A program made the position numbers and the translations under genes. Below are positions 51,519 through 64,000 of a stretch of 64,000 nt of DNA, piece by piece. Numbering within the stretch: position 1 is the stretch's first letter; each line of letters starts with the position of its first letter. This DNA is from Spirochaetia bacterium. GTDB lineage: Bacteria; Spirochaetota; Spirochaetia; CADAEX01. The notes beneath the pieces were generated by a model, which saw only the letters and a list, made by a program, of their open reading frames with translations, was not told the DNA's origin and ran no database searches. The DNA is taken from contig JAZURI010000003.1 in NCBI GenBank assembly GCA_045606105.1, positions 1-64,000 of the forward strand. Direction: 5' to 3'.

Positions 51519-52439
51519 TTGGACAGATATATTTCCTATCTTACAGATATCAGGAAACTCTCAAAGGCAACAATAAAGGCCTACACCGGGGATCTGGATG
51601 AATATTTCTCATACATGACCTCCAATGGGGAGAATCCGGATAATCCTGACAGGAACTGCGGAAGGAAATATGTGGCCCATCTGTCAAGAAAGGGATTTGA
51701 TCCGAGAAGCATCAACAGGAAAATTTCCTGCCTGAGAAAATATTATGCTTACAGGATCAGGGAAAAAGAGAGCTCCTTCAATCCTTTCGATTTTGTAAAA
51801 GCTCTGAAAACAGACCGTAAGCTGCCGGTATATCTTTCAGCCGGAGAAATAAACAGACTTGACGGTCAGACAGAAAAAAGAGAATCCGTGAGTGCTGCTC
51901 TGGGTGCCCGTGACAATGCCCTTTTCCACTTTCTCTACGCATCAGGATGCCGTATTTCCGAAGCTCTTTCCATCAATCTGGAAAAGGTGGATTTCAGCCG
52001 GAGAGAAATCGTTATCACAGGAAAGGGAAACAAGCAGCGGGTTGTTTTTTTCGGAGACCGGGGATACGAGGCTCTGGAAAAATATCTCCCTTACAGGGAA
52101 GAAATCCTGAATGCAAACCAGAGCAAAACCAAGGCCCTTTTTGTCAGCAGCAGAGGAAAGAGGCTGACAGCCGGTGGTGCTTCATACATACTCGGAAAAT
52201 ATATGGCGGAAAGCGGAATAGACAAGAAGGTTACACTTCATACCTTCAGGCACACATTTGCCACCCATATCCTGGAAAACGGAGCCGATATCAGGGCTGT
52301 ACAGGAGCTTATGGGCCATTCCGGACTTTCTTCGACACAGATTTATACCCATGTGGGAATAGGCAGACTGAAGGATATTCACCGTATTGCCCATCCCCAC
52401 GGAAGGCTTGATAACCAAGGAGAAAAACATGGAATTTAG
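51519..52439 (+). CDS. xerC: Tyrosine recombinase XerC-like
   Basis: RD.AL...[38 protein letters not shown]. Confidence 0.88.
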
Positions 52440-52962
52440 AGGAACTACCATCCTTGCCGTAAGAAAGGGGGGAAAAACAGCCATGGCCGGAGACGGACAG
52501 GTAACCCTTGACAAGACTGTAATGAAAGGACATGCGCGTAAGGTCCGCAAGATATATGACGGAAAGATTCTGGTGGGATTTGCCGGTGCTACGGCAGATG
52601 CCTTCACCCTTTTCGAGAAATTTGAAGGAAAGCTCAAGGAATTCAACGGGGACATGACCCGCAGTGCCGTAGAGCTGGCCAAGGAATGGAGAACAGACCG
52701 TGCTCTCCGTCGTCTGGAGGCAATGCTTCTGGCTGCCGATGCCGGCAAGATACTCCTTATTTCAGGTACCGGCGACGTGGTGGAGCCGGACGAGGATACC
52801 CTGGCCATCGGCTCCGGCGGAAACTATGCCTATGCTGCAGCCCTTGCCCTTCTCCGGGCCGATGTTGCAATGGAGGCATCCGAGGTGGCCAGGAAATCCC
52901 TGGAAATAGCATCTCAGATCTGTATCTATACTAACGACAATATTATCGTGGAGGAGCTCTGA
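52429..52962 (+). CDS. hslV: ATP-dependent protease subunit HslV
   Basis: TTILAV, GDGQVT, GFAG.TADA, AIGSGG.YA, CIYTN; SD aggag. Confidence 0.97.
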
Positions 52963-54320
52963 TGTTGGATTTTGATCAGCTTACACCGAAACAGATAGTT
53001 GAAGAACTTGATAAATATATCATCGGCCAGAACAATGCAAAGAAGGTCGTGGCCATGGCACTCAGGAACAGAGTCAGGAGAAAACAGCTCCCGGAGGCAC
53101 TCAGGGAAGAGGTTATTCCAAAGAACATCATCATGATCGGTTCCACAGGTGTAGGAAAGACAGAAATAGCCAGAAGACTTTCAAAGCTTTCAGGAGCCCC
53201 ATTTGTAAAGGTGGAGGCTACTAAATATACCGAGGTAGGCTATGTGGGCCGCGATGTGGAGTCCATAATCAGGGACCTTATGTCAGTGGCTGTAAACATG
53301 GTCAAGTCAGAAATGAGAAATGGTGTGGAGGCCGATGCAAAGGCCCGTGTCGAGGAACTTATCCTTGATGCCCTTCTTCCCGGAACCGGAAACAAGCCGC
53401 TTGCCGAGGGCGAAAACCAGGTTCCTCAGATTCCTGCCGGAGATTCCTCTCTCAGGGAAAAGTTCAGGAACAAGCTCCGGAACAACGAACTTGAGGAGAA
53501 GCAGATAGAGATAGATGTGAATCAGGGCGGATTCCAGCCGATGGAGATTTTTGCAGGAACCGGAATGGATGACATGGGTCTCAATTTCGGAAGCATTACC
53601 GGCATGCTGGGCAATAAGAAAAAGAAACGGAGAACCAGTGTAAAGAATGCCAGGGAGCTTCTTCTCGAAGAGGAAATTGACAAGCTTATCGATACAGACA
53701 AGGTTTCCGAAATTGCAAGAAAGCGTACCCAGGAGATGGGTATCGTGTTTATCGATGAAATTGACAAGGTGGCCGGCAGACAGAGTACCGGCGGTGCCGA
53801 TGTATCCAGGGAAGGGGTCCAGAGAGACATTCTTCCTATCGTGGAGGGCTGCAAGGTCAATACAAAATATGGAATGGTGGATACCACCCATATCCTTTTC
53901 ATTGCAGCAGGTGCTTTCCACATGAGCAAGCCGTCGGACCTTATTCCTGAGCTTCAGGGACGTTTTCCTCTCAGGGTTGAGCTGGGAAGCCTCAAGGCCG
54001 ATGAATTTGAGAAAATACTTACAGTACCGAAAAATGCACTTATCAAGCAGTATGAGGCCCTTATGGATACGGAAGGGGTAAAGCTTGAGTTCACACCGGA
54101 AGCCGTAAGAAGAATTGCGGTTATCTCGGAGGAACTGAATTCCGGTACGGAAAATATCGGGGCAAGAAGACTTCATACCATTATGGAGCTTCTTCTGGAA
54201 GAGGTCTCTTTCTCGGCTCCTGAGCTGAAGGGACAGACCATAACCATAACTCCGCAGTATGTGGACGAAAGACTTCACGGAGTATTGGGAGACCAGGATC
54301 TGGCAAAATATATCCTTTAG
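52962..54320 (+). CDS. hslU: ATP-dependent protease ATPase subunit HslU
   Basis: PKNI.MIG.TGVGKTEIARR, GYVGRDVES, DEIDK, PELQGRFP, NIGARRL. Confidence 0.98.
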   Translation: MLDFDQLTPKQIVEELDKYIIGQNNAKKVVAMALRNRVRRKQLPEALREEVIPKNIIMIGSTGVGKTEIARRLSKLSGAPFVKVEATKYTEVGYVGRDVESIIRDLMSVAVNMVKSEMRNGVEADAKARVEELILDALLPGTGNKPLAEGENQVPQIPAGDSSLREKFRNKLRNNELEEKQIEIDVNQGGFQPMEIFAGTGMDDMGLNFGSITGMLGNKKKKRRTSVKNARELLLEEEIDKLIDTDKVSEIARKRTQEMGIVFIDEIDKVAGRQSTGGADVSREGVQRDILPIVEGCKVNTKYGMVDTTHILFIAAGAFHMSKPSDLIPELQGRFPLRVELGSLKADEFEKILTVPKNALIKQYEALMDTEGVKLEFTPEAVRRIAVISEELNSGTENIGARRLHTIMELLLEEVSFSAPELKGQTITITPQYVDERLHGVLGDQDLAKYIL

Positions 54321-54331
54321 GGAGGGGAGAT

Positions 54332-55270
54332 ATGAGAGAGCAGATTTCAAACTTATGGAAAAATCTTAAAAACGGACAGAAAGTTACACTGATAATGATT
54401 TTTGTTGCTGCTTTTGCCGGAATTCTGTTTCTGTGCTCGGCAGGAACCACATCCTTCAAGACACCGCTCTTTACCGCACCTATCGGGGATAAGGATGTTA
54501 TCAGCCGTATTTCAATCCGTCTTGACCGGGCCGGTGTGGAGCATTCCCTCAGGGACGGGATGATTTTTGTAAATGACAAGGAATCTGCCGGAAAGATGGT
54601 AGCTCTTCTGGTAAGGGAAGATCTGGTGCCTAAGGAAGCTTCTCCATGGGATGTTTTCAGGATGGACAGATGGACCACCACCGATTTCGAGCGCAATGTC
54701 AATCTCCGCCGTGCCATTACAGAAGGGCTTGAAAACCATATCGAGTCCCTGGATGACATAGATAAGGCCGGAATTACCCTGGTAATGCCTGAAAAGGAGC
54801 TTTTCTCCGAGGATCAGAAAGAGGTTACCGCCTCCATTATCCTTACAGTCAGACCCGGCTCCGACTTCATCTACAACAGAAAGAAGATCGAAGGAATCAT
54901 AAAGCTGGTAAAGTTTGCGGTGGAAGGGCTTGAAACAGAAAATATCACTATCTGCGATACTGCAGGAAATGTCCTCAGCGACCTGTCGGCACTTCCTGTA
55001 CCGCCTCAGGGTATGCAGATAACCGAACCTGAACAGACCGGGATTATAAAGGAAAGCAATACTCTTTTCTTTATCGGTGAGTTCGGAGTAGGATACAATC
55101 ACATATACATGGCTCTTGGTGCTGCTGCCGTAATTGTCATTGCCGTGTTTGCAGTCAGGGGTATCAGAAAGAAAAAGGATGAAGCTCTTCTTTCAGATGC
55201 AAGGAAAATTGCTTCCGAAAATCCGGAAGAAGTTGCCAGACTTATCAAGATGTGGCTTTCGGAGGGGTAG
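54332..55270 (+). CDS. fliF: Flagellar MS-ring protein FliF, internally shortened (312 aa)
   Basis: Spirochete FliF motifs DPW-like SPWDVF..DRWT.TDFER.VNLRRAI, LVMPE..LF..DQ..VTASI, AVEGL..ENI.I.D; C-terminal NPEEVARLIKMWLSE. Confidence 0.88.
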   Translation: MREQISNLWKNLKNGQKVTLIMIFVAAFAGILFLCSAGTTSFKTPLFTAPIGDKDVISRISIRLDRAGVEHSLRDGMIFVNDKESAGKMVALLVREDLVPKEASPWDVFRMDRWTTTDFERNVNLRRAITEGLENHIESLDDIDKAGITLVMPEKELFSEDQKEVTASIILTVRPGSDFIYNRKKIEGIIKLVKFAVEGLETENITICDTAGNVLSDLSALPVPPQGMQITEPEQTGIIKESNTLFFIGEFGVGYNHIYMALGAAAVIVIAVFAVRGIRKKKDEALLSDARKIASENPEEVARLIKMWLSEG

Positions 55271-55273
55271 AAT

Positions 55274-56242
55274 ATGAAGAAAAAACTTTCCGGAAAAGAG
55301 AAAGCTGCCGTATTCATCATGGCTCTGGGATCTGAGATCTCCTCTTCCGTATGCAGTCATCTCTGCAGTGAAGACCAGGAAATCCTCTCCTATGAAATAG
55401 CAGCCAGAAGAATAACCGGTGCCTGCAGCGTAAAGTCTGTTCTGTCTGAATTCAGGAATCTCATGAAGGCAGGTAACCTTACCGTTATCGGAGGAATCGA
55501 CTATGCCGGTTCAGTTCTTAAAAGGACAATGGGACTTGAAAAAGCAGAAGAAATCATCAGCCGTATTTCCCTGTTCATGCACAGGAAGCCCTTTGATTCC
55601 ATAAGAAAGGTTGCGCCGGATTCGCTTCTTGCCCTTCTGAAAGGGGAACATCCCCAGACCATAGCCGTGGTTCTTGCCAATGTGGAGCCGGAAAAGGCCT
55701 CTTCAATCCTTGCCAGACTGCCTCGTGAAATCCAGTCGGATGTGGCAAAGCGTATTGCCGTATTGGACAGAACCGAACCTGAAACTCTTCTCAGAATTGA
55801 GAAAATCATCGAAAGAAAGCATGCTATGGCTTCTGCTGCCGGAGAATACAGGGGCGGAATAGAAAGCATCATCGAAATACTGAACCATATGGACCGCAGC
55901 TCCGGGGACAATATTATAAGTACCATTCTCAGGGAGGATTCTCTCCTGTCAGCCAGACTCAGGGAAAAGAATCTCAGCTTCGACGATATTGCATTGCTGG
56001 ACAATCCTTCTGTTATCCGGATAATCAGGGAAACCGATCCGGTTGAAATCGAGAAGGCACTCCGTACAGCCGATTACAGGGTACGGGAAAAAATCATGAA
56101 CAATCTCTCCTCCGAGGTTTCCGAAAAGGTAAGAAACAACGAGGGTCGTCCTATTCTGATTGCCGATATCGAGGCTGCACAGAACAGGATAACAGGGCTT
56201 TTGAAAAAGCTTATGGAACAGGGCGAAATTGCTTTTGCATGA
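55274..56242 (+). CDS. fliG: Flagellar motor switch protein FliG, divergent
   Basis: LSGKEKAA, GGIDYA, EHPQTIA, GG linker, DIE.AQ.RI...GEI. Confidence 0.92.
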   Translation: MKKKLSGKEKAAVFIMALGSEISSSVCSHLCSEDQEILSYEIAARRITGACSVKSVLSEFRNLMKAGNLTVIGGIDYAGSVLKRTMGLEKAEEIISRISLFMHRKPFDSIRKVAPDSLLALLKGEHPQTIAVVLANVEPEKASSILARLPREIQSDVAKRIAVLDRTEPETLLRIEKIIERKHAMASAAGEYRGGIESIIEILNHMDRSSGDNIISTILREDSLLSARLREKNLSFDDIALLDNPSVIRIIRETDPVEIEKALRTADYRVREKIMNNLSSEVSEKVRNNEGRPILIADIEAAQNRITGLLKKLMEQGEIAFA

Positions 56243-56253
56243 AGAGGTAACTG

Positions 56254-56904
56254 ATGTCAGATATACTTTTTAAAGCCGTAGATATAGCAGAACTGGAAAA
56301 TGCCAAGGCGCTGGAGAACCGGGAAAATGCCTGTGCCGAGGCAGAAAGCATAAGGGCTCAGGCCCGTGCCGAAGCGGAGCGTATACTGGCCGAGGCTGAA
56401 AAGAATGCCCGTCTTGCCGAAAGGAAAGGGGAACAGAAGGGGCGTGATGCAGGCTTCCGGGAGGGACTTGCAGAGGTTTCCATGGTTGCGGAAAGAATCC
56501 GTTCCGTTCTTGTGAGGCTTACGGAGGAAAAGGACAGGATGCTGGCTTCTGCAGAGGATGAACTTGCCTCCCTGGCTCTTGAAATTGCAGAAAAGATAGT
56601 TAAAAGAAGCTGTGAGGAATACCGGGAAACAGCTGTTGAGAACATAAGGCATGCACTGACAGGCATCGGTGAAAGCTCAGAGGTGACAATCAGGGTCAAT
56701 CTGGAGGATATCGATATATCCCAGACCCATCTCAGGGATTTTCAGTCTGCATGTTCTGATGGCGGAAAAATCAAAATAGTACCGGAGCCGTCGGTGGAAA
56801 GGGGCGGCTGCATAGTCGAGACCGGATCATGCCGTATCGATGCCACAGTCTCATCCCAGCTCAGGGCTGTGGAAAGGATATGGAAAGATGTTCGGGAAGT
56901 ATAG
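56254..56904 (+). CDS. fliH: FliH/SctL-family protein, short
   Basis: AxxxA/GxxxG repeats (GEQKGRDAGFREG), IRVN..D, GGCIVET..IDA.V.SQL. Confidence 0.88.
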   Translation: MSDILFKAVDIAELENAKALENRENACAEAESIRAQARAEAERILAEAEKNARLAERKGEQKGRDAGFREGLAEVSMVAERIRSVLVRLTEEKDRMLASAEDELASLALEIAEKIVKRSCEEYRETAVENIRHALTGIGESSEVTIRVNLEDIDISQTHLRDFQSACSDGGKIKIVPEPSVERGGCIVETGSCRIDATVSSQLRAVERIWKDVREV

Positions 56905-57154
56905 GGAAGCCCTTCGGAAAAGGGATACGCTGACCTTTACCGGCAGGATAGTCAAGGTTTCGGAAAACCTGGCCGAAAGCATAGGGCCGGCAGTGGCACT
57001 GGGCGATATCTGCCGCATAATTATTCCATCCACAGGCGAAGGTATCAGGGCCGAGGTAATCGGTCTGGACCGGGAAACAGTCTGCCTCAGGGCAGCCGGC
57101 TCTCTCAAGGGGGTCAGGATCGGCTCTGTAGTGGAAGCGGAAAACAGCTTGTAA
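56888..57154 (+). CDS. fliI: FliI N-terminal domain only (88 aa, no ATPase domain)
   Basis: MFGKY..., TGRIVKV...AESIGP...GDICRI...AEVIGL...GVRIGSVV matches the FliI N-terminal beta-barrel; TAA TAA stop; no Walker motifs seen downstream. Confidence 0.8.
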   Translation: MFGKYREALRKRDTLTFTGRIVKVSENLAESIGPAVALGDICRIIIPSTGEGIRAEVIGLDRETVCLRAAGSLKGVRIGSVVEAENSL

Positions 57155-57199
57155 TAAAATTTCACTTATATATCAGACCGAAAAGTTCGACAATTAAGT

Positions 57200-57604
57200 A
57201 TGGTGCAGTTTTTATATCCCGTACTAAGAGAGCCGGACATTCTCAGGAAATATCCCACAGAAATCGTTGATATGACAAAAATCGGCAATTCAGTGAAGAG
57301 AATCACTGCCGAGGTTATAATCCCTGGAGTAGGCTTTGCCTCCGTATCCCTGAAATTCAACGGTAACAGGTTCACCATGGATATTGCTGTAAACCGCAGC
57401 GGGGTAAAGAAGCTGGTGGAGGAGAGAATCCATGAGCTTGTAAGCAGGTATAAATCCCCCGATTATATCCTTACAGAGCTTTCCGTAAGGCTGGATGAGG
57501 AAAGGCTGTGCACATCCGGTTCCTGTCTCGATATCATGTCTGACAGGTGGCTCAATATCGTTTATCCCGACTCATCATCATGTCATCTGGAAACCTTTGC
57601 CTAA
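57200..57604 (+). CDS. FliK C-terminal (T3S4)-like domain protein
   Basis: IPGVGFASVSLKFNGNRFTMDIAV....VKKLVEERIHEL resembles the L.P..LG.v.v.l FliK-C pattern; located at the fliK position. Confidence 0.5.
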   Translation: MVQFLYPVLREPDILRKYPTEIVDMTKIGNSVKRITAEVIIPGVGFASVSLKFNGNRFTMDIAVNRSGVKKLVEERIHELVSRYKSPDYILTELSVRLDEERLCTSGSCLDIMSDRWLNIVYPDSSSCHLETFA

Positions 57605-57637
57605 TAATATATTTATATTAAATAATAAAGAAACAGT

Positions 57638-57666
57638 TTGCAAAATTACGGTATGTTTGCTAAAAT
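57638..57666 (+). promoter_or_regulatory. Internal sigma70-type promoter for fliM(N)-fliOPQR-flhBA-flhF
   Basis: TTGCAA-N17-TAAAAT preceded by an AT-rich UP-like tract at 57603-57630. Confidence 0.7.
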
Positions 57667-57675
57667 ATATGCAGT

Positions 57676-58647
57676 ATGCAGGATGGGGCATGGGATTACA
57701 GTTCTTATAAATCTCTGTTGACAGCTTTTTCGGAAGCTTTTGCTCTCCTTGCATCCGTAAAAAACGGTATTTCCATTGAATTTTCAGAACTGAAGCAGAC
57801 AGTTTACAGCCGATATGTAAGGTCTCAGCCAAGCTATACCGCATCACTTCTTCTTGACTGGAACGGAATCGGGATTACGGCAGATGCAGATCCCGGTCTT
57901 TCATTTTACGTGCTGGAGAGACTTCTCGGAGGAAACGGCAGTCCGGGTATAGTGAACAGGCCTCTTTCGGTAATAGAGCAGGCTGTGGTTTCAGATTTTT
58001 TTTCAAGGCTTGCGGAGGGGCTGGGTACTGTTGCCGGCTGGTGCGGTTCAGAAGCTCCGGAATGGAAAAAGCTTTATCCTTCGGTATCGGAGACAGGGCT
58101 TACAGAGGAGGAATCCCCGGTTGTCATCCTGTCTTTCAATGCAGACGGAAAAAAGGATAACCTTAGAATTGTTTTCCCTGCAGCTGCAGGCAGTGCATTA
58201 TGTGCCCTGTTGTCAGAGGCTTTTGCCGAAGATGGCAGTGTAAGGTTTTCTGCAGAGACGGAGGGAGTGGTTCTTTCTGAAACGGAAAGGGCAGATCTGG
58301 GAATCGGCGATGTTATTGCATTGGGTAAACCGGGAAACCTGCTGCAGTTCAGGATCGGAAAGAAGTTATGCTGCAGATGTGAAACCGGTCTGTCAGGGGA
58401 TAAACCTGCGGTACGGACCGTGGATGTCATGCCGGAGCCTGAAAGGGATGGGACTGTAACCGTTCTTTTCGGCCGGGGAAGGATCGGAGTGGCTCAGGCG
58501 GCGGCTCCGGAAAAGGGAATAACAGCCCTGGTGGACAGAAAAAAGGGAGAGCCGGCCGGGCTTCTTGTCTCAGGAAAGGCTGTTGCTCTGTGTGAATTTG
58601 TAATGCTTGAGGATAAGCTGGGAGTGCGTATCATAAAGTTGATTTGA
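57676..58647 (+). CDS. fliM: FliM-FliN fusion-like C-ring protein
   Basis: FliM middle-domain motifs ERLLGG.G and RPLS.IE; SpoA-like LGIGDVI.L...CETG....AVR; second FliN-like SpoA VTV.FGR...DRKKGEP..LLV.GK.VA.CE.V.LEDKLGVRII. Confidence 0.75.
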   Translation: MQDGAWDYSSYKSLLTAFSEAFALLASVKNGISIEFSELKQTVYSRYVRSQPSYTASLLLDWNGIGITADADPGLSFYVLERLLGGNGSPGIVNRPLSVIEQAVVSDFFSRLAEGLGTVAGWCGSEAPEWKKLYPSVSETGLTEEESPVVILSFNADGKKDNLRIVFPAAAGSALCALLSEAFAEDGSVRFSAETEGVVLSETERADLGIGDVIALGKPGNLLQFRIGKKLCCRCETGLSGDKPAVRTVDVMPEPERDGTVTVLFGRGRIGVAQAAAPEKGITALVDRKKGEPAGLLVSGKAVALCEFVMLEDKLGVRIIKLI

Positions 58648-58678
58648 ATATGATGTTTTAAAATCTCTGGGAGGGGAC

Positions 58679-59173
58679 GTGAAAAACATTCTTTTAACAA
58701 TAATTTTGTCTCTTAATATATTTTCTGCACAGCATGTGTTCTGTGATACATTTTCTGCTGCGGATGAAAGTTCATTATCCATAGGGGGCGGCAGCAGTGC
58801 CGGTGTCCGGGCTGCTTCTCCGGTATTTTCCTCAGGGGACCTTTTCAGGATGATACTGGTTCTGGTGCTGGTTACCGCACTGATCTATGCAGTTTTCCAT
58901 CTCCTCAGGAAATTCCGTTTTTCAGAGAACGGGGGAGACAAGGGGGATATCCGCATTCTTTCCAGCAAGGGACTGGGACCTGGAAAGGCACTCCATGTGG
59001 TTGAGATTGCCGGCCGGTATTTTGTTATCGGTGCTTCCGACAACTCTGTTTCATGTATTACCGAGCTTACGGAGGAAGAGGGAAGGAAAATCGGTACCGG
59101 ACAATCCGTATCAGGCTTCTCCCTTGCGGAAAATCTCCGTAAAATCAAGGCCTGCAGGGAGAGACTGAAATGA
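58679..59173 (+). CDS. fliO: Flagellar biosynthesis protein FliO/FliZ
   Basis: TM FRMILVLVLV.ALIY, then LGPGK.LHVVEI.GR.FVIG.SD.SV..I. Confidence 0.88.
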   Translation: MKNILLTIILSLNIFSAQHVFCDTFSAADESSLSIGGGSSAGVRAASPVFSSGDLFRMILVLVLVTALIYAVFHLLRKFRFSENGGDKGDIRILSSKGLGPGKALHVVEIAGRYFVIGASDNSVSCITELTEEEGRKIGTGQSVSGFSLAENLRKIKACRERLK

Positions 59174-59952
59174 AAAAAGTACTTCTTCTGGTTTTACTTA
59201 TGGGATTATTCCTTTCTGCAGAGCTCTTTGCTTCCGAAAGCAATGCTTCAGGCGGTTTTGCCCTCCCTTCCGTAGAAATAAACATGGGAGAAGGGGCTGT
59301 AAACACCGGTGACAATGAAAAGACTGCCTCCTCCATAAAGCTGCTGCTGCTCCTTTCAGTAATTGCCATAGCCCCTTCGGTGCTGCTTCTCTGCACCTCC
59401 TTCATAAGGATAGCCGTGGTTCTGGATTTCATAAAGCGTTCCCTGTCGCTGCAGCAGACTCCACCCAATCAGATAATCATGGGACTGGCCCTTTTCCTTA
59501 CGGTCTTCATCATGTGGCCTGTCTTTGACGATATTTATCAGAATTCCTTCAAGCCTTTTTCCCAGGGGGAGATAGAGGCTTCCGAAATGTATGGCAGGGC
59601 TGAAAAGCCTCTCAGGATATTCATGTACAACCAGCTCAGGGATAACCCGGAAAACATCAGGCTTTTCATGAATCTCAGCGGTCTTCCGAAGCCGGCAAAC
59701 CTTTCCGAGGTTCCGACCTATGTCCTGGTTCCTGCCTTTGCACTCAACGAACTTACGGTGGCGTTCAGGATCGGTGTCCTTATTTTCATACCGTTCCTGG
59801 TTATAGATATGATAGTGGCATCCATTCTCATGTCCATGGGGATGGTCATGGTACCACCTGTAATGGTGTCTCTTCCGTTCAAGCTGATGGTATTTGTCCT
59901 TGCTGACGGATGGAACCTTATAATTGGCCGGTTGCTCAGCAGCTTTGTCTAG
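59170..59952 (+). CDS. fliP: Export gate protein FliP
   Basis: TSFIRI.VVL, QQTPPNQ, PAF.L.EL..AF.IG, MSMGM.MVPP..VSLPFKL..F.L.DGW. Confidence 0.97.
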   Translation: MKKVLLLVLLMGLFLSAELFASESNASGGFALPSVEINMGEGAVNTGDNEKTASSIKLLLLLSVIAIAPSVLLLCTSFIRIAVVLDFIKRSLSLQQTPPNQIIMGLALFLTVFIMWPVFDDIYQNSFKPFSQGEIEASEMYGRAEKPLRIFMYNQLRDNPENIRLFMNLSGLPKPANLSEVPTYVLVPAFALNELTVAFRIGVLIFIPFLVIDMIVASILMSMGMVMVPPVMVSLPFKLMVFVLADGWNLIIGRLLSSFV

Positions 59953-59960
59953 GAGATAAA

Positions 59961-60230
59961 ATGGAACTCGGTGATGCTGTATACATTTTCAAGACATCCC
60001 TGATTCAGGTACTGCTTGTTGCCTCTCCGGTGCTTCTGGTCAGTCTTCTTGTGGGGCTGATAGTGTCGTTTTTCCAGTCGGCAACCTCAATCCACGAGCA
60101 GACTCTGGTATTTATTCCTAAAATTCTGGCAGTTCTCCTGGTCCTGATACTTCTGGGGGGCTGGATGATTTCTGCCATAGAGCAGTATACGCTGCATATA
60201 TTTGACATGATTCCGGGGATGACTGAATGA
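59961..60230 (+). CDS. fliQ: Export gate protein FliQ
   Basis: P.L...LVGLIVS.FQ.ATSI.EQTL.FIPKI; SD aggag. Confidence 0.96.
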   Translation: MELGDAVYIFKTSLIQVLLVASPVLLVSLLVGLIVSFFQSATSIHEQTLVFIPKILAVLLVLILLGGWMISAIEQYTLHIFDMIPGMTE

Positions 60231-60943
60231 ACTGGTGGCTTTTTTTCCTGGCCTTTGCCAGAATATTTGCCTTGATGCAGACTGCACCTCTTCTCTCATC
60301 AAGAAGCGTTCCGCTCCTGGTCCGCATCGCCATGTCCCTTTTTACAGCCTACGGAGTCACACCGGCCCTTACCGGAATTGTCATACCACAGGATCCGGTT
60401 TCATATTATCTCCTGCTGGCAGGAGAGGCCATGCTGGGAGCGGCAATGGGACTCTTCATGCAGATGGCTTATATGGTATTCCTTTCTGCCGGCCGGTTCA
60501 TGGGACTCTGTTTCGGAAATTTTTCGGGGGATGCCGATTCTCCGGTTGCCGGTCTCATGAATTATGCCGCAGTTTTCGTATTTCTGGCCGCATCGGGGCT
60601 CTACAGCCTTTTCTTTATAGGGGTTACCTCCTCCTTCAAGGCTCTTTCGGCCTACGACATTGCAGCCTGCAGGGAGGGAATGGCATTGCTCCTGACAAGG
60701 GGTTTTTCTGCAATGTTTGCCAAGGCACTACTGACAGCACTGCCCGTGATTGCCGTTCCTCTTCTTGTTACATTGATTACCGGGATTCTGAGACACATGG
60801 ATTTCGGCTGGAGTGCGGCCATGGTTACCGGAATCATAATGCTGGCCTTTGTCCTTCCGTTCCTTATGGATAGCTTCGGAAGCTTCATCGACAGCAGCTT
60901 TGACATAGTTTCGGGATGGATTTCATCGGGAGGAAGCCTATGA
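60227..60943 (+). CDS. fliR: Export gate protein FliR, divergent
   Basis: FFL.FARI.A....APLLSS..VP...R, GEA.LG, SF, ALP; position between fliQ and flhB. Confidence 0.85.
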   Translation: MNWWLFFLAFARIFALMQTAPLLSSRSVPLLVRIAMSLFTAYGVTPALTGIVIPQDPVSYYLLLAGEAMLGAAMGLFMQMAYMVFLSAGRFMGLCFGNFSGDADSPVAGLMNYAAVFVFLAASGLYSLFFIGVTSSFKALSAYDIAACREGMALLLTRGFSAMFAKALLTALPVIAVPLLVTLITGILRHMDFGWSAAMVTGIIMLAFVLPFLMDSFGSFIDSSFDIVSGWISSGGSL

Positions 60944-61632
60944 TTGATGAAATCCGTGAGGTAAAGGCCACTGCCCGAAGGGTGAAAAAGGCTTCTGAAA
61001 GGGGAGATTCACCGAGAAGCAGGGAATTTGCAATGGCTTTTTCACTTCTGGCCGTACTGCTTGTCACCTTGGTTTTCGGAAAATATTTTCTCGGATGCAT
61101 CAGGGAAACCGTTGCTTCCTTTATCGGTTATGCAGTGGAGGGTGAGCTTGACGGAAAGGCTGCAGCCATGGCCTTCGGATGCTTTGTCCGGGTATGTGTT
61201 CCCTATTTTGCGGTGCTGGCTGCCGTGACCTGGATGACAGAGGTCAGTCAGGTGGGCTTTGTATTCGTTACCGGGGAAAAAAGAAAAATGGGAAAAAAGA
61301 CCCCATCCTCCGGATGGATCGGTGGAATTCTTTCCCTGCTCAGGACTGCTGCGGTGACAGCGGTGGTTTTCCTGGCTGTAAAAAGCGATTTCAACCGGCT
61401 TGCCGGTATGACAGATATGATGTTTACCTTTGTATTTGTTTTCAGGGTTCTTCTTTATGTGGGAATCCTTCTGGTGATTTCTGCATCTGCAGATTACTTG
61501 ATTGCCAGGTTCCTTCACAGGGAATCTCTCCGTATGACCAGAAGGGAGCTTTCGGAAGAACAGAGGGATGAAATGGGAGATCCGGCTGTAAAGGCCAGAC
61601 TTGACGAGAGAATGAAACAGCTTCTGAGCTGA
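60940..61632 (+). CDS. flhB: FlhB transmembrane part only, lacking NPTH and the cytoplasmic domain (230 aa)
   Basis: AT.RR..KA.E.G..PRS.E, Q.GF.F, DY......SLRMT..E..EE.....GDP.VK.R; stop before NPTH. Confidence 0.88.
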   Translation: MIDEIREVKATARRVKKASERGDSPRSREFAMAFSLLAVLLVTLVFGKYFLGCIRETVASFIGYAVEGELDGKAAAMAFGCFVRVCVPYFAVLAAVTWMTEVSQVGFVFVTGEKRKMGKKTPSSGWIGGILSLLRTAAVTAVVFLAVKSDFNRLAGMTDMMFTFVFVFRVLLYVGILLVISASADYLIARFLHRESLRMTRRELSEEQRDEMGDPAVKARLDERMKQLLS

Positions 61633-61646
61633 AAGGGCTTTGATAT

Positions 61647-63668
61647 ATGATGAAAGAGAGAAAAAACAGCAATATTCTGGTGCCGCTGATAGTGCTTGTG
61701 GTGGTAGCGATGATAATAATACCAATGCCGGTACCGCTGCTTGATATCTTTATGGCAGCCAACCTGCTTTTCAGCCTTGCGGTACTGCTGATGGTCATCT
61801 ACACCGGAAAGCCTTCCGATTTTTCGGTTTTCCCGACCATGCTTCTTGTCTCCACCGTATTCGGACTGGGGCTGAATGTATCCTCCACCAGGCTTATCCT
61901 TTCCAAAGGGGCCGAATTTGACGGCAAGCTTATCAGGGCCTTCGGAAACTTTGTCGTAGGTTCATCGGGAAATGAGGGTCTTGTAATCGGTCTGATCATC
62001 TTTGTCATCTTTATCCTTGTCCAGCTGATCGTAATAACCAAGGGTGCCGGAAGAGCTGCCGAGGTTGCTGCCAGGTTCAATCTGGATGCCATGAACCAGC
62101 GGAATCTCTCCATCGATGCCGATGTGGCAGGGGGCCATATTACAGCAGCTGAAGGGGAAATACGGAAAAAGGAGTATCAGCAGGAAACTGATTTCTACAA
62201 GAGCATGGACGGTGCCTCCAAGTTTGTTTCCGGAAATGTAAAGGTGGGAATCGTCATCACATTGGTCAATATCATCGGCGGTATAATCATCGGAATGCTG
62301 CTCAGGAAGGAAAGCTTCGGTCTGGCTGTGGCAAACTATACAGCCCTTACCATCGGAGACGGTCTTGTAACCCAGTTCCCTTCCATTATGATTTCGGTAG
62401 CCACTGCCATCATAGTCACCAGCTCCACCGGTTCCGGCTCGCTGGCAGCCGACTTTGCCGGACAGTTTTCCAAAAGGCCGGAAATATACCGTATCCTTGC
62501 AGTTTTTTCAGTAATAATGGCCCTTCTTCCGGGCTTCAGAAGAGCATGGTACATTTTCATTCCTCTGGGAATCTTTCTTTTCTATCTGGGACACAAACTG
62601 GGACAGTCAGGTTCCGTTCCTGAAAAAGAGGAGAAACCCGAAACAAAGCCGGAAAGTGCCGCCCCTGCCGCAGACATAAGCATTTCCCCAGTGTCAGAGG
62701 TTCATCCTCTCTATCTGGGACTGGGATACGGTCTTTACAGATTTGCATCTGACAGCACCATGTTCGGAAACCGTATAACGGAACTCCGGAAAAAAATAGC
62801 ATCTGAACTGGGATTTGCCATTCCTCCGGTCAGGATAACAGATAACCTTAATCTTAAGCCGGCGGAATACAGTATCAGGATCAGGGATGTGGAGGCAGCC
62901 AGGGCTTCTGTCCGTGCAGACAAGCTTGTGGCCATAGCCGACGGTCCGGTATCGGACAAGGTGCTCCGAAATCTGGGTGAGGAATTCAATGAACCGGTCT
63001 ACGGAAAAAAAGCCTGCTGGATTTCGGCAGAAGAGAGGGAAAATGCCCGGGACAAAGGGTGTATAGTTACAGATATACCGTCTCTCATTATTGTCCATAT
63101 GGAGGAGATAATCAGGAGAAATGCCGCTGACCTCCTTGACCGTCAGACTGTGCAGTCCATGCTGGATGAGCTTTCAAAAAGACATCCTGCCGCAGTAAAG
63201 GAGACCATGAAGCTTCTTACTCTGATAGATATACACAAGGTGCTCAGGAATCTGCTCAAGGAACAGGTTTCCATCCGGGATCTGGGACTGATTCTTGAAA
63301 CTCTCGGCGACAGCGTTTCTGTCTCCGGGGATATCGGATATCTTACGGAAGAGACACGCCGGGGACTCAGACGGCAGATTTCACACAGCTATGCAGATGA
63401 AGGAATGCATCTCCATGTCATTACACTCAGCAGCGAAACAGAGAAAAAGCTTCTGGAAAATCCTTATGATATCAGATTCAACGAAAAGCTTGCAGGAAGG
63501 GTAATGGAGCTGGCAGAGGGAAGAAACGTGGTTCTTATGTGCAGAAAGGAGCTCAGGGCCGGTCTGGGAGCCCTTCTTGCCGGAAAAAAGAGCTTTGTTC
63601 CGGTATTATCGGCAGATGAGAAGGCAGATGACATAATTATTGAATTCCACGGAAAGGTTGATGTATGA
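61647..63668 (+). CDS. flhA: Export apparatus protein FlhA
   Basis: FS.FPT.LL..T.F.L.LNVSSTRLIL, ITKG..R.AEV.ARF.LD, MDGASKFVSG, TIGDGLV.Q.P, LL.EQVSIRDL..ILE. Confidence 0.97.
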   Translation: MMKERKNSNILVPLIVLVVVAMIIIPMPVPLLDIFMAANLLFSLAVLLMVIYTGKPSDFSVFPTMLLVSTVFGLGLNVSSTRLILSKGAEFDGKLIRAFGNFVVGSSGNEGLVIGLIIFVIFILVQLIVITKGAGRAAEVAARFNLDAMNQRNLSIDADVAGGHITAAEGEIRKKEYQQETDFYKSMDGASKFVSGNVKVGIVITLVNIIGGIIIGMLLRKESFGLAVANYTALTIGDGLVTQFPSIMISVATAIIVTSSTGSGSLAADFAGQFSKRPEIYRILAVFSVIMALLPGFRRAWYIFIPLGIFLFYLGHKLGQSGSVPEKEEKPETKPESAAPAADISISPVSEVHPLYLGLGYGLYRFASDSTMFGNRITELRKKIASELGFAIPPVRITDNLNLKPAEYSIRIRDVEAARASVRADKLVAIADGPVSDKVLRNLGEEFNEPVYGKKACWISAEERENARDKGCIVTDIPSLIIVHMEEIIRRNAADLLDRQTVQSMLDELSKRHPAAVKETMKLLTLIDIHKVLRNLLKEQVSIRDLGLILETLGDSVSVSGDIGYLTEETRRGLRRQISHSYADEGMHLHVITLSSETEKKLLENPYDIRFNEKLAGRVMELAEGRNVVLMCRKELRAGLGALLAGKKSFVPVLSADEKADDIIIEFHGKVDV

Positions 63669-64000
63669 TCGGTGATTATTCCTTAGTTGTCAGAGCCCTT
63701 GAAAGGATAGAAAAAAAACTGGATTCCGGTATCGGTACAACAGCTGTGCCCGATAATATTCTCTATACCGAGGAGCTTCTCCGTTCAAACGATTTTTCCC
63801 ATTCCTTTATCAGGAAAATATCGGAGACCCTGATGAGGGAGGTTTCCTACGAGAATCTTCTGAGCAGAGGCTATGTGCTGAAGAGAATCAGGGATCTTAT
63901 TCTTGATAATATAAATATTTATGATATTACAGAGCCTTATGTTCCGGAAATTACGGTGTTGCTGGGCCCAACCGGAGTCGGAAAGACCACCACGGTAGCC
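63665..64000 (+). CDS. flhF: FlhF SRP-family GTPase, 3'-truncated by window edge (not in the ORF track)
   Basis: ATGA overlap with flhA; translates MIGDYSLVVRALERIEKKL...EELLRSNDFS..FI...VLLGPTGVGKTTTVA. Confidence 0.88.
   Translation, partial: MIGDYSLVVRALERIEKKLDSGIGTTAVPDNILYTEELLRSNDFSHSFIRKISETLMREVSYENLLSRGYVLKRIRDLILDNINIYDITEPYVPEITVLLGPTGVGKTTTVA

Follow-up and report, generated by a model that had tools for sequence, protein, structure and literature searches.

We describe a naturally shortened form of the flagellar MS-ring protein FliF, encoded at 54332-55270 on the forward strand of a 64,000-nucleotide (nt) stretch of DNA from a Spirochaetia bacterium (GTDB lineage Bacteria; Spirochaetota; Spirochaetia; CADAEX01; positions 1 to 64,000 of contig JAZURI010000003.1, assembly GCA_045606105.1), which is hereafter called the window. 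The protein, of 312 amino acids (aa), retains both termini of FliF and the first two ring-building motifs (RBM1 and RBM2) and lacks the third, RBM3, together with the beta-collar. Based on the observed domain layout, conservation, selection and gene content, we propose that it is probably a functional, selectively maintained MS-ring derivative, laid out like the injectisome protein SctJ, within a rod-less, non-rotating flagellar type III core that is found throughout the genus. This core comprises the short FliF, FliG, a FliM-FliN fusion, FliO, FliP, FliQ, FliR, an FlhB reduced to its membrane part, FlhA, FlhF and sigma-28.

Domain architecture of the short FliF

The open reading frame (ORF) at 54332-55270 (+) is free of stop codons and translates into 312 aa. 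The original prediction had described a FliF of this length with a first transmembrane (TM) helix, RBM1 and RBM2, a linker of about 40 aa, a second TM helix and a tail, and every landmark string that it quoted was located in the translation: ENITICDTAGNVLSD ends at residue 217 (nt 54982), HIYMALGAAAVIVIAVFAV corresponds to residues 257-275 and NPEEVARLIKMWLSE to residues 297-311. The features of the protein are as follows.

54332..55270, + strand: short FliF, 312 aa (ORF translation, Pfam, alignment, dN/dS, AlphaFold2 model, fold and PDB searches)
54383..54439, + strand: predicted TM1, about residues 18-36 (sequence, model helix 14-37, alignment)
54497..54979, + strand: RBM1-RBM2, residues 56-216 (Pfam YscJ_FliF, model elements, invariant columns)
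54983..55102, + strand: variable linker, residues 218-257, in the position of RBM3 and the beta-collar (pLDDT below 50, poor conservation, dN/dS 0.15-0.23)
55103..55156, + strand: predicted TM2, residues 258-275, followed by a KKK stop-transfer (sequence, alignment, model)
55181..55267, + strand: cytoplasmic C-terminal helix, the putative FliG-binding tail, residues 284-312 (alignment to the C-terminus of 12dr_A, dN/dS 0-0.2)

As anticipated by the original prediction, a Pfam search recovered YscJ_FliF (PF01514) at residues 56-216 (E 6.4e-37; 127.6 bits, the cut-off being 24.4) and no other family; in particular, YscJ_FliF_C (PF08345), which covers RBM3 and the beta-collar, was not found in the protein. 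Nor was it found elsewhere when the complete assembly (11 contigs totalling 1,464,972 bp, completeness 99.03%) was searched in all six frames, with a control that matched in four well-known genomes; YscJ_FliF itself has exactly one match in this genome, namely the short fliF gene. Thus, the predicted absence of RBM3 and the beta-collar is borne out for the protein and for the genome alike.

Searches of the PDB with phmmer aligned residues 12-217 to residues 20-222 of Salmonella FliF, and residues 285-310 to its residues 531-556, although the latter stretch is not significant by itself. With the 569-aa FliF of 12dr_A, residues 7-222 and 275-310 aligned to residues 14-230 and 533-566 (E 6.5e-65). 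These alignments indicate that about 300 residues are gone between RBM2 and the C-terminal helix. RBM1-RBM2 terminates in the motif D-x-x-G-x-x-L (D209, G212, L215), which has been described as that of the RBM2-RBM3 hinge loop (PMC11739650), and in the alignment the deletion begins immediately 3' of this motif. As the cytoplasmic linker after TM2 is shortened too, at least two deletions must have occurred.

An AlphaFold2 model built with 55 sequences predicts alpha-beta-beta-alpha units at residues 54-95 and 118-209, disorder at residues 220-260 (per-residue confidence, pLDDT, below 50) and a long helix that starts at residue 256 as TM2 and continues into the C-terminal helix; the linker of this model contains no third ring-building motif. 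The two hydrophobic segments that flank the periplasmic part (residues 18-36 and 258-275) coincide with model helices 14-37 and 256-296. We also considered a lipoprotein reading of TM1 based on its LFLC string and ruled it out: C35 is not conserved, and relatives read VSSAGS at this place. By the same alignment, with no signal-peptide predictor run, a SctJ-type Sec signal with a lipobox was not found, the residue at -1 being L.

The pairing of the FliF tail with the N-terminal domain of FliG was also modelled. The predicted complex scored 0.47, with 0.09 for the best control, with at least 93% contact agreement between runs and a partner pLDDT of at least 70. The mark used for such scores is attained by 58 of 80 solved complexes and by 2 of 110 mismatched pairs; scores at the mark that do not exceed 0.60 are found for just 7 of the 80 solved complexes and for both of the passing mismatches. 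As a like complex is already solved, the prediction lends weak support to a likeness and does not speak for binding as such.

Spread and history of the short form

We compared the source genome (G000) with eight other species of the genus (among them G001, G002, G003, G005, G007 and G008) and with a motile relative (G015), which served as reference and outgroup. The short form is present in eight of the nine species of the genus. All eight other species match the protein; in seven of them the match spans residues 4-311 at 58-76% identity, and the open frame measures 322-398 aa. The called proteins of the short form are 311-314 aa long. The FliF open frames of other genera in the family and class measure 570-592 aa. 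Across the alignment RBM1-RBM2 is nearly invariant up to D-x-x-G-x-x-L-x-D, after which come a poorly conserved linker (rich in proline in a six-species clade), TM2, KKK and a tail that is again conserved.

The remaining species, G001, encodes a FliF of 470 aa that keeps the core of RBM3 (with PF08345 on record). In this protein the beta-collar insert is short of about 75 alignment columns, and the cytoplasmic linker is reduced as well. The lengths form a graded series from 569 aa in other genera, through 470 aa in G001, to 311-314 aa in the remaining species. This series, together with the synteny with hslU and fliG, points to orthology with spirochaete FliF by descent. In a tree of HslU, FliP and FlhA, G001 is sister to the two clades with the short FliF (support 0.978), so that the full loss of RBM3 looks like a single event inherited by eight species; as the tree is rooted on G015 as a single outgroup, we regard this conclusion as provisional.

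Beyond these genomes, a search of 5.8 billion proteins returned 47 clusters whose proteins are 311-315 aa long and have PF01514 as their sole family; some of these clusters carry the NCBI name "flagellar M-ring protein FliF". Four other candidates (P0052, P0055, P0057 and P0088) were rejected as short forms, being ordinary FliFs that break off, or acquire out-of-frame-looking tails, inside RBM3 or the collar; in P0049 (293 aa) the short form has an additional internal gap. A search of genome contigs for related loci recovered one, from a "Spirochaetia bacterium" metagenome-assembled genome (MAG) that is a G005-like relative. A phylum-wide scan for YscJ_FliF matched 390 of 401 genomes with 396 matches in total; frame lengths are listed for 150 of these, which makes the scan unfit as a length census, and among the matches listed there are two short open frames (376 and 285 aa), both at contig ends. 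The same class also offers an example of outright FliF loss: in one spirochaete family none of five genomes (96-99% complete) has a YscJ_FliF match. A literature search, which did not extend to supplementary files, found no description of an RBM3-less FliF with both RBM1 and RBM2, nor of this spirochaete group.

Selection on fliF and the core genes

Ratios of nonsynonymous to synonymous divergence (dN/dS) were estimated by the Nei-Gojobori method. For fliF the ratio is 0.157 between G000 and G005, and four pairs of the other clade give 0.053-0.081. Broken down along the protein, it is 0.02-0.07 for RBM1-RBM2, 0-0.20 for the C-terminal tail, 0.15-0.23 for the linker and 0.12-0.37 for TM2. Within the six-species clade the C-terminal helix reaches only 0-0.03, in agreement with the proposal of the original prediction that both termini were kept. 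As dS is 0.7-1.0 in the fliF pairs and saturated between the two clades (G000 versus G007), these ratios are rough; nevertheless, the sign of the result clearly points to purifying selection on fliF.

Among the flagellar neighbours, the core-block genes included, dN/dS ranges from 0.09 (fliP, the lowest) to 0.31 (fliM), with 0.16 for fliG. The corresponding values for hslU and hslV are 0.045 and about 0.05. Because the short form is genus-wide and under purifying selection, we regard it as more than a decaying gene.

The locus and the flagellar genes kept and lost

The short fliF starts 12 nt past the stop codon of hslU, and fliG starts 4 nt past that of fliF. In motile relatives, flgB, flgC and fliE lie between hslU and fliF; their loss, which the original prediction had linked to the shortening of FliF, holds at both locus and genome level. 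The other genes of the locus are listed below.

52962..54320, + strand: hslU (65% identity to G015 HslU)
55274..56242, + strand: fliG, 322 aa (domain search, alignment, dN/dS 0.16)
56254..56904, + strand: fliH, 216 aa (FliH family match, E 1e-23)
56840..57154, + strand: fliI remnant with the N-terminal beta-barrel part only, match at 56888-57142 (family and homology search)
57200..57604, + strand: ORF of 134 aa with a weak, sub-threshold match to the FliK C-terminal family Flg_hook (E 4e-4)
57676..58647, + strand: FliM fused to a FliN/FliY-type C-terminal SpoA domain, 323 aa (family search, alignment)
58679..59173, + strand: fliO (family match)
59170..59952, + strand: fliP (family match; dN/dS 0.09)
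59910..60230, + strand: fliQ (family match, alignment)
60227..60943, + strand: fliR (homology match)
60916..61632, + strand: flhB, membrane part only, 238 aa (profile match, positions 4-240 of 335)
61647..63668, + strand: flhA, full length, 673 aa (homology match)
63665..64000, + strand: flhF, which runs past the end of the window and stops at contig position 64531 (homology match)
contig 64585-65337, just outside the window: fliA, encoding sigma-28 (homology match)

The fliG product keeps the EHPQ motif and all three domains (N, M and C). In the alignment it has lost 2 aa, and its charged torque-helix positions, as we presume them to be, carry other residues. The FliG of G001 (L010:2915-3580) is 221 aa long with internal deletions in the N and M domains. 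The fliI remnant has lost the ATPase domain; about 100 N-terminal aa are left in both G000 and G005. In the other clade a full-length FliI accompanies the short FliF. The FliM-FliN fusion lacks the N-terminal segment of the reference FliM and keeps GGxG; the six-species clade has the same form in 328 aa, and as a single chain it resembles SctQ in layout. FliP shares the methionine loop GMVMVPP with the motile relative, and FliQ matches that relative at its E/K positions; both features have been described (PMC8239009).

The NPTH autocleavage domain was not found in FlhB of the source genome. In eight of the nine species FlhB measures 238-250 aa and ends just ahead of this domain, with the cut point at …GDPxVK… in all eight; G001 has an FlhB of 348 aa without NPTH, and the motile reference one of 384 aa with NPTH. 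The FlhB C-domain is the domain on which FliK acts. The 134-aa ORF with the FliK_C-like match is conserved in G005 although that domain is absent (51% identity between the orthologues, dN/dS 0.27). Similarly, fliA is kept in all loci of the genus that were examined, though neither flagellin nor any other usual target was found. A regular expression (TAAA-N15-17-CCGATA[AT]) run over the genome gave 17 matches, and several of these (such as C5:77069 and C6:3013) lie upstream of genes for small proteins of membrane or secreted type; as this count has no shuffle control, we do not claim a sigma-28 regulon.

We then compared the flagellar-operon proteins of G015 with the source genome. Matches were obtained for HslU, the first 220 aa of FliF, FliG, FliH, FliM (weakly), the C-terminal part of FliN/Y, FliO, FliP, FliQ, FliR, residues 34-282 of FlhB, FlhA, FlhF and sigma-28. 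For FliI only the first ~85 aa match; its other matches, at 24-34% identity, fall on other ATPase genes, which we take, judging by identity rather than by a family search, to be V-type and related ATPases. No match in the source genome was found for FlgB, FlgC, FliE, FliJ, FlgD, FlgE, FlbD, MotA, MotB or FliL of G015, and reference FlgB, FlgC and FliE gave no tblastn match at E<=1e-3; a family search of the source genome likewise found no Flg_bb_rod.

Across the genus, flagellin and the rod/hook C-terminal domain Flg_bbr_C are each absent from all nine genomes and present in 11 of 12 others. Among the four genomes of the genus searched for them, none has FliE, a methyl-accepting chemotaxis protein (G015 has 21 matches) or the secretin domain PF00263, the controls for the last working; the SctD profile also gave no match, its control likewise having matched nowhere. 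A MotA-type stator was not found in these four: the MotA_ExbB matches are short ExbB/TolQ-type frames (203-227 aa) in three of them, with none in G003, and G015 MotA measures 263 aa. FlhA and FliP are intact in 9/9 genomes each, and the block FliO-P-Q-R-FlhB-FlhA-FlhF-FliA recurs in seven further species of the genus and in G005, with a FliM-type gene 5' of it except in G001. In the six-species clade, as seen at loci of G002 and G003, the operon is split; in G002 hslU-fliF-fliG-fliH-fliI lies ~65 kb from fliM-…-flhA-flhF-fliA on one contig.

Proposed working and alternative explanations

The S-ring, built by RBM3 and the beta-collar, houses FliE and the rod. We propose that this part, along with most of the cytoplasmic linker, was removed in frame. 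What remains would form or line an inner-membrane ring of RBM1-RBM2 that encircles the FliPQR-FlhB-FlhA gate, in the manner of injectisome SctJ and of the RBM2 ring of FliF. The C-terminal helix would hold FliG and the FliM-FliN protein beneath this ring in an assembly that is presumably static, with no rotation and no rod built; any exported product would emerge on the periplasmic side of the inner membrane. The trimming is coherent and affects the parts that serve the rod, torque and switching. More tentatively, and with a good deal of doubt, we suggest that the genus may have re-run, independently and recently, the first steps from flagellum to injectisome: with a SctJ-like FliF, a SctQ-like FliM-FliN and a torque-stripped FliG, and with the rod, hook, stator and switch domains discarded, it might possess a working exporter of non-flagellar proteins to the periplasm under the control of sigma-28.

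Several points weigh against a maintained ring around a gate. Ring assembly is not assured, given that a Salmonella construct of RBM1 and RBM2 is reported to be monomeric, with RBM3 lifting the inhibition (PMC8786727); if RBM3 is absent, the gate or the two TM helices may have to act as a template for the ring. The confidence of the AlphaFold2 model is moderate (mean pLDDT 65.9), and no export substrate was identified. Constraint on the system is relaxed, with flagellar-gene dN/dS 2-7 times that of hslU, at dS of ~0.7-2.7, which is near saturation. Although contigs from RNA-labelled runs (X9 and X20) match the stretch, DNA carry-over could also yield them. Parts that are important for export in model systems are missing: FliE, FliJ and the FlhB C-domain, as well as the ATPase domain of FliI in G000 and G005. 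The losses are also mosaic: six of nine species have full-length FliI (in G008 as two pieces at contig ends), G000 and G005 have just its N-terminal part, and G001, where no FliI was found, also has no FliH or FliM match in the two loci examined and carries the 221-aa FliG. In this regard the system of the genus looks as if it were eroding at the edges around a stable centre.

The strongest alternative, which we nonetheless consider rather unlikely, is that the system is functional and does not secrete: FliF, FliG and possibly FliM, with FlhA and FlhF, would act as a membrane landmark or signalling checkpoint, for instance in marking a pole or division site or in the control of sigma-28, and the gate would pass no protein. 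Such a role finds precedent in Campylobacter, where the MS ring, rotor and flagellar type III secretion system are reported to have a regulatory role (PMC3760246). It would accord with the retention of both FlhF and sigma-28 (41% and 52% identity to their counterparts in the motile relative), with the loss of the FlhB C-domain, FliJ and FliE from the genomes of the genus that were searched, and with that of the FliI ATPase domain from the source species. However, among the flagellar genes fliP is under the tightest constraint, and the methionine loop that lines the FliP pore reads as in the motile relative, which is hard to explain if the pore passes nothing. Furthermore, FlhG, the usual partner of FlhF in placement, has no match in the flhF-fliA locus and only weak matches elsewhere in the genome.

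The short FliF might instead be a functionless and slowly decaying relic, one of a set of flagellar genes leaving a shrinking genome. The genome is just 1.46 Mb in size; the losses of FliI, FliH, FliM, part of FliG and the FlhB C-domain are mosaic and lineage-specific; and the flagellar dN/dS of 0.09-0.31 stands above the values near 0.05 of hslU and hslV. We regard this as improbable. The frame is intact in eight of nine species and in the 47 clusters, fliF has a dN/dS of 0.05-0.16 at a dS of about 0.7-1, with the putative FliG-binding tail at 0-0.03 in the six-species clade, and the two clades that share the deletion (G000 versus G007) are separated by saturated synonymous divergence. In the family with no FliF in any of its five genomes, moreover, the gene was lost outright, and therefore an unused copy does get purged.

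Lastly, an artefact of mis-assembly, a chimeric MAG contig or a mis-called ORF is refuted, even though the genome is a metagenome-type assembly in 11 contigs: the same FliF junction occurs in eight species, the locus is syntenic in G005, and contigs from two DNA runs of two studies and from one RNA-labelled run span fliF without indels. One such independent DNA run yielded a contig of 10,270 nt that spans 52000-59799 with 40 substitutions and 0 gaps, and the stretch is present in runs of eight studies, all of animal gut or faeces.

Significance

The short FliF, as a probable MS-ring derivative, offers a natural experiment on the minimum content of an MS ring for housing an export gate. If the protein makes a ring, RBM3 would be dispensable for this purpose, and the subunit numbers of the ring and of FliG would be set by RBM2; in Salmonella the inner RBM2 ring is described as a 23-mer and the RBM3 ring as a 34-mer (PMC8786727, PMC11739650). 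The lineage would further provide a living and datable parallel to the FliF-to-SctJ step that has been proposed for the origin of injectisomes (PMC3459982), including an intermediate in the sister species G001, where the RBM3 core is kept and most of the beta-collar insert is gone. More generally, these small-genome gut spirochaetes without flagella exemplify in nature a motility machine reduced to an injectisome-like core, and they raise the concrete question of what purpose a rod-less flagellar type III core serves in a gut symbiont with a 1.5-Mb genome. On the practical side, the public name "flagellar M-ring protein FliF" would mislead predictions of motility for these MAGs.

Comparison with known systems

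With canonical FliF (560 aa in Salmonella, 569 aa in a spirochaete) the short protein shares the two TM helices, RBM1-RBM2, the hinge motif, the putative FliG-binding helix at the C-terminus and the position immediately upstream of fliG, and over the shared part it is 48-49% identical to the full-length FliFs of related genera. It differs in lacking ~230 aa of RBM3 and beta-collar, that is, the S-ring, ~60 aa of cytoplasmic linker and PF08345, and in having no rod to house.

The nearest natural precedent is the chlamydial FliF. In Chlamydiaceae, FliF is described as a protein of ~330 aa with RBM2 and an unassigned RBM-like segment, fused to a FliG-M-like domain (Bergeron 2016, PMC4768692). Like the present protein, it is naturally shortened, has two TM helices and, according to that account, belongs to a non-flagellated lineage with a few flagellar genes. 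Unlike this fusion, the short FliF keeps RBM1 and ends in the ordinary helix that is presumed to bind FliG, with FliG encoded by a separate gene (322 aa). Chlamydiae, on the same account, own a full injectisome with SctJ and SctD, whereas none is present with the short FliF.

Retention of the export apparatus after loss of flagellin has been reported for Lysobacter enzymogenes OH11, which is non-flagellated and whose flagellar T3SS (type III secretion system) secretes non-flagellar proteins (PMC7688988). Lysobacter keeps the genes for rod, hook and L/P-ring, FliI and fliF, and no change in the domains of fliF is mentioned there. In the present genus, by contrast, all axial genes have been lost, and FliF, FlhB and FliM have undergone domain-level remodelling. 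Buchnera is likewise non-flagellated and keeps the flagellar T3SS.

In the scheme of Abby and Rocha (2012), the first step to injectisomes is that genes specific to the flagellum are lost, and partial loci of flagellar origin are noted (PMC3459982). As in this first step and in the Myxococcales intermediate as described there, flagellum-specific genes are lost here, the T3SS core is kept, and there is no secretin. Unlike that intermediate, the present case appears to be a separate and much younger event inside Spirochaetota, and it has no genes specific to non-flagellar T3SS.

In layout the short FliF is like SctJ (EscJ, PrgK, MxiJ), with its membrane anchor, RBM1, RBM2, linker and C-terminal TM helix and no third RBM. 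The likeness extends to fold, with matches to EscJ 1yj7 (E 1.5e-7), MxiJ 6rwx and PrgK 2y9j/5tcp, and to context, namely a FliPQR/FlhBA-type gate without rod or S-ring. The fold search nevertheless placed chains of FliF RBM1-RBM2 at the top (23-35% identity), followed by EscJ, MxiJ and PrgK (14-19%). Unlike SctJ, the anchor of the short FliF is a TM helix and not a lipobox, the putative FliG-binding tail is kept along with a separate FliG, and no secretin was found in any of the four genomes searched. Injectisomes keep the C-domain of the SctU-type (FlhB) protein; in this genus it is lost. Hence the convergence on SctJ suggested by the original prediction stands for the layout and goes no further: judging by the sequences, the short FliF does not come from the SctJ clade and is an independent reduction within spirochaete FliF, which converges on SctJ in architecture only and by sequence and fold is still a FliF.

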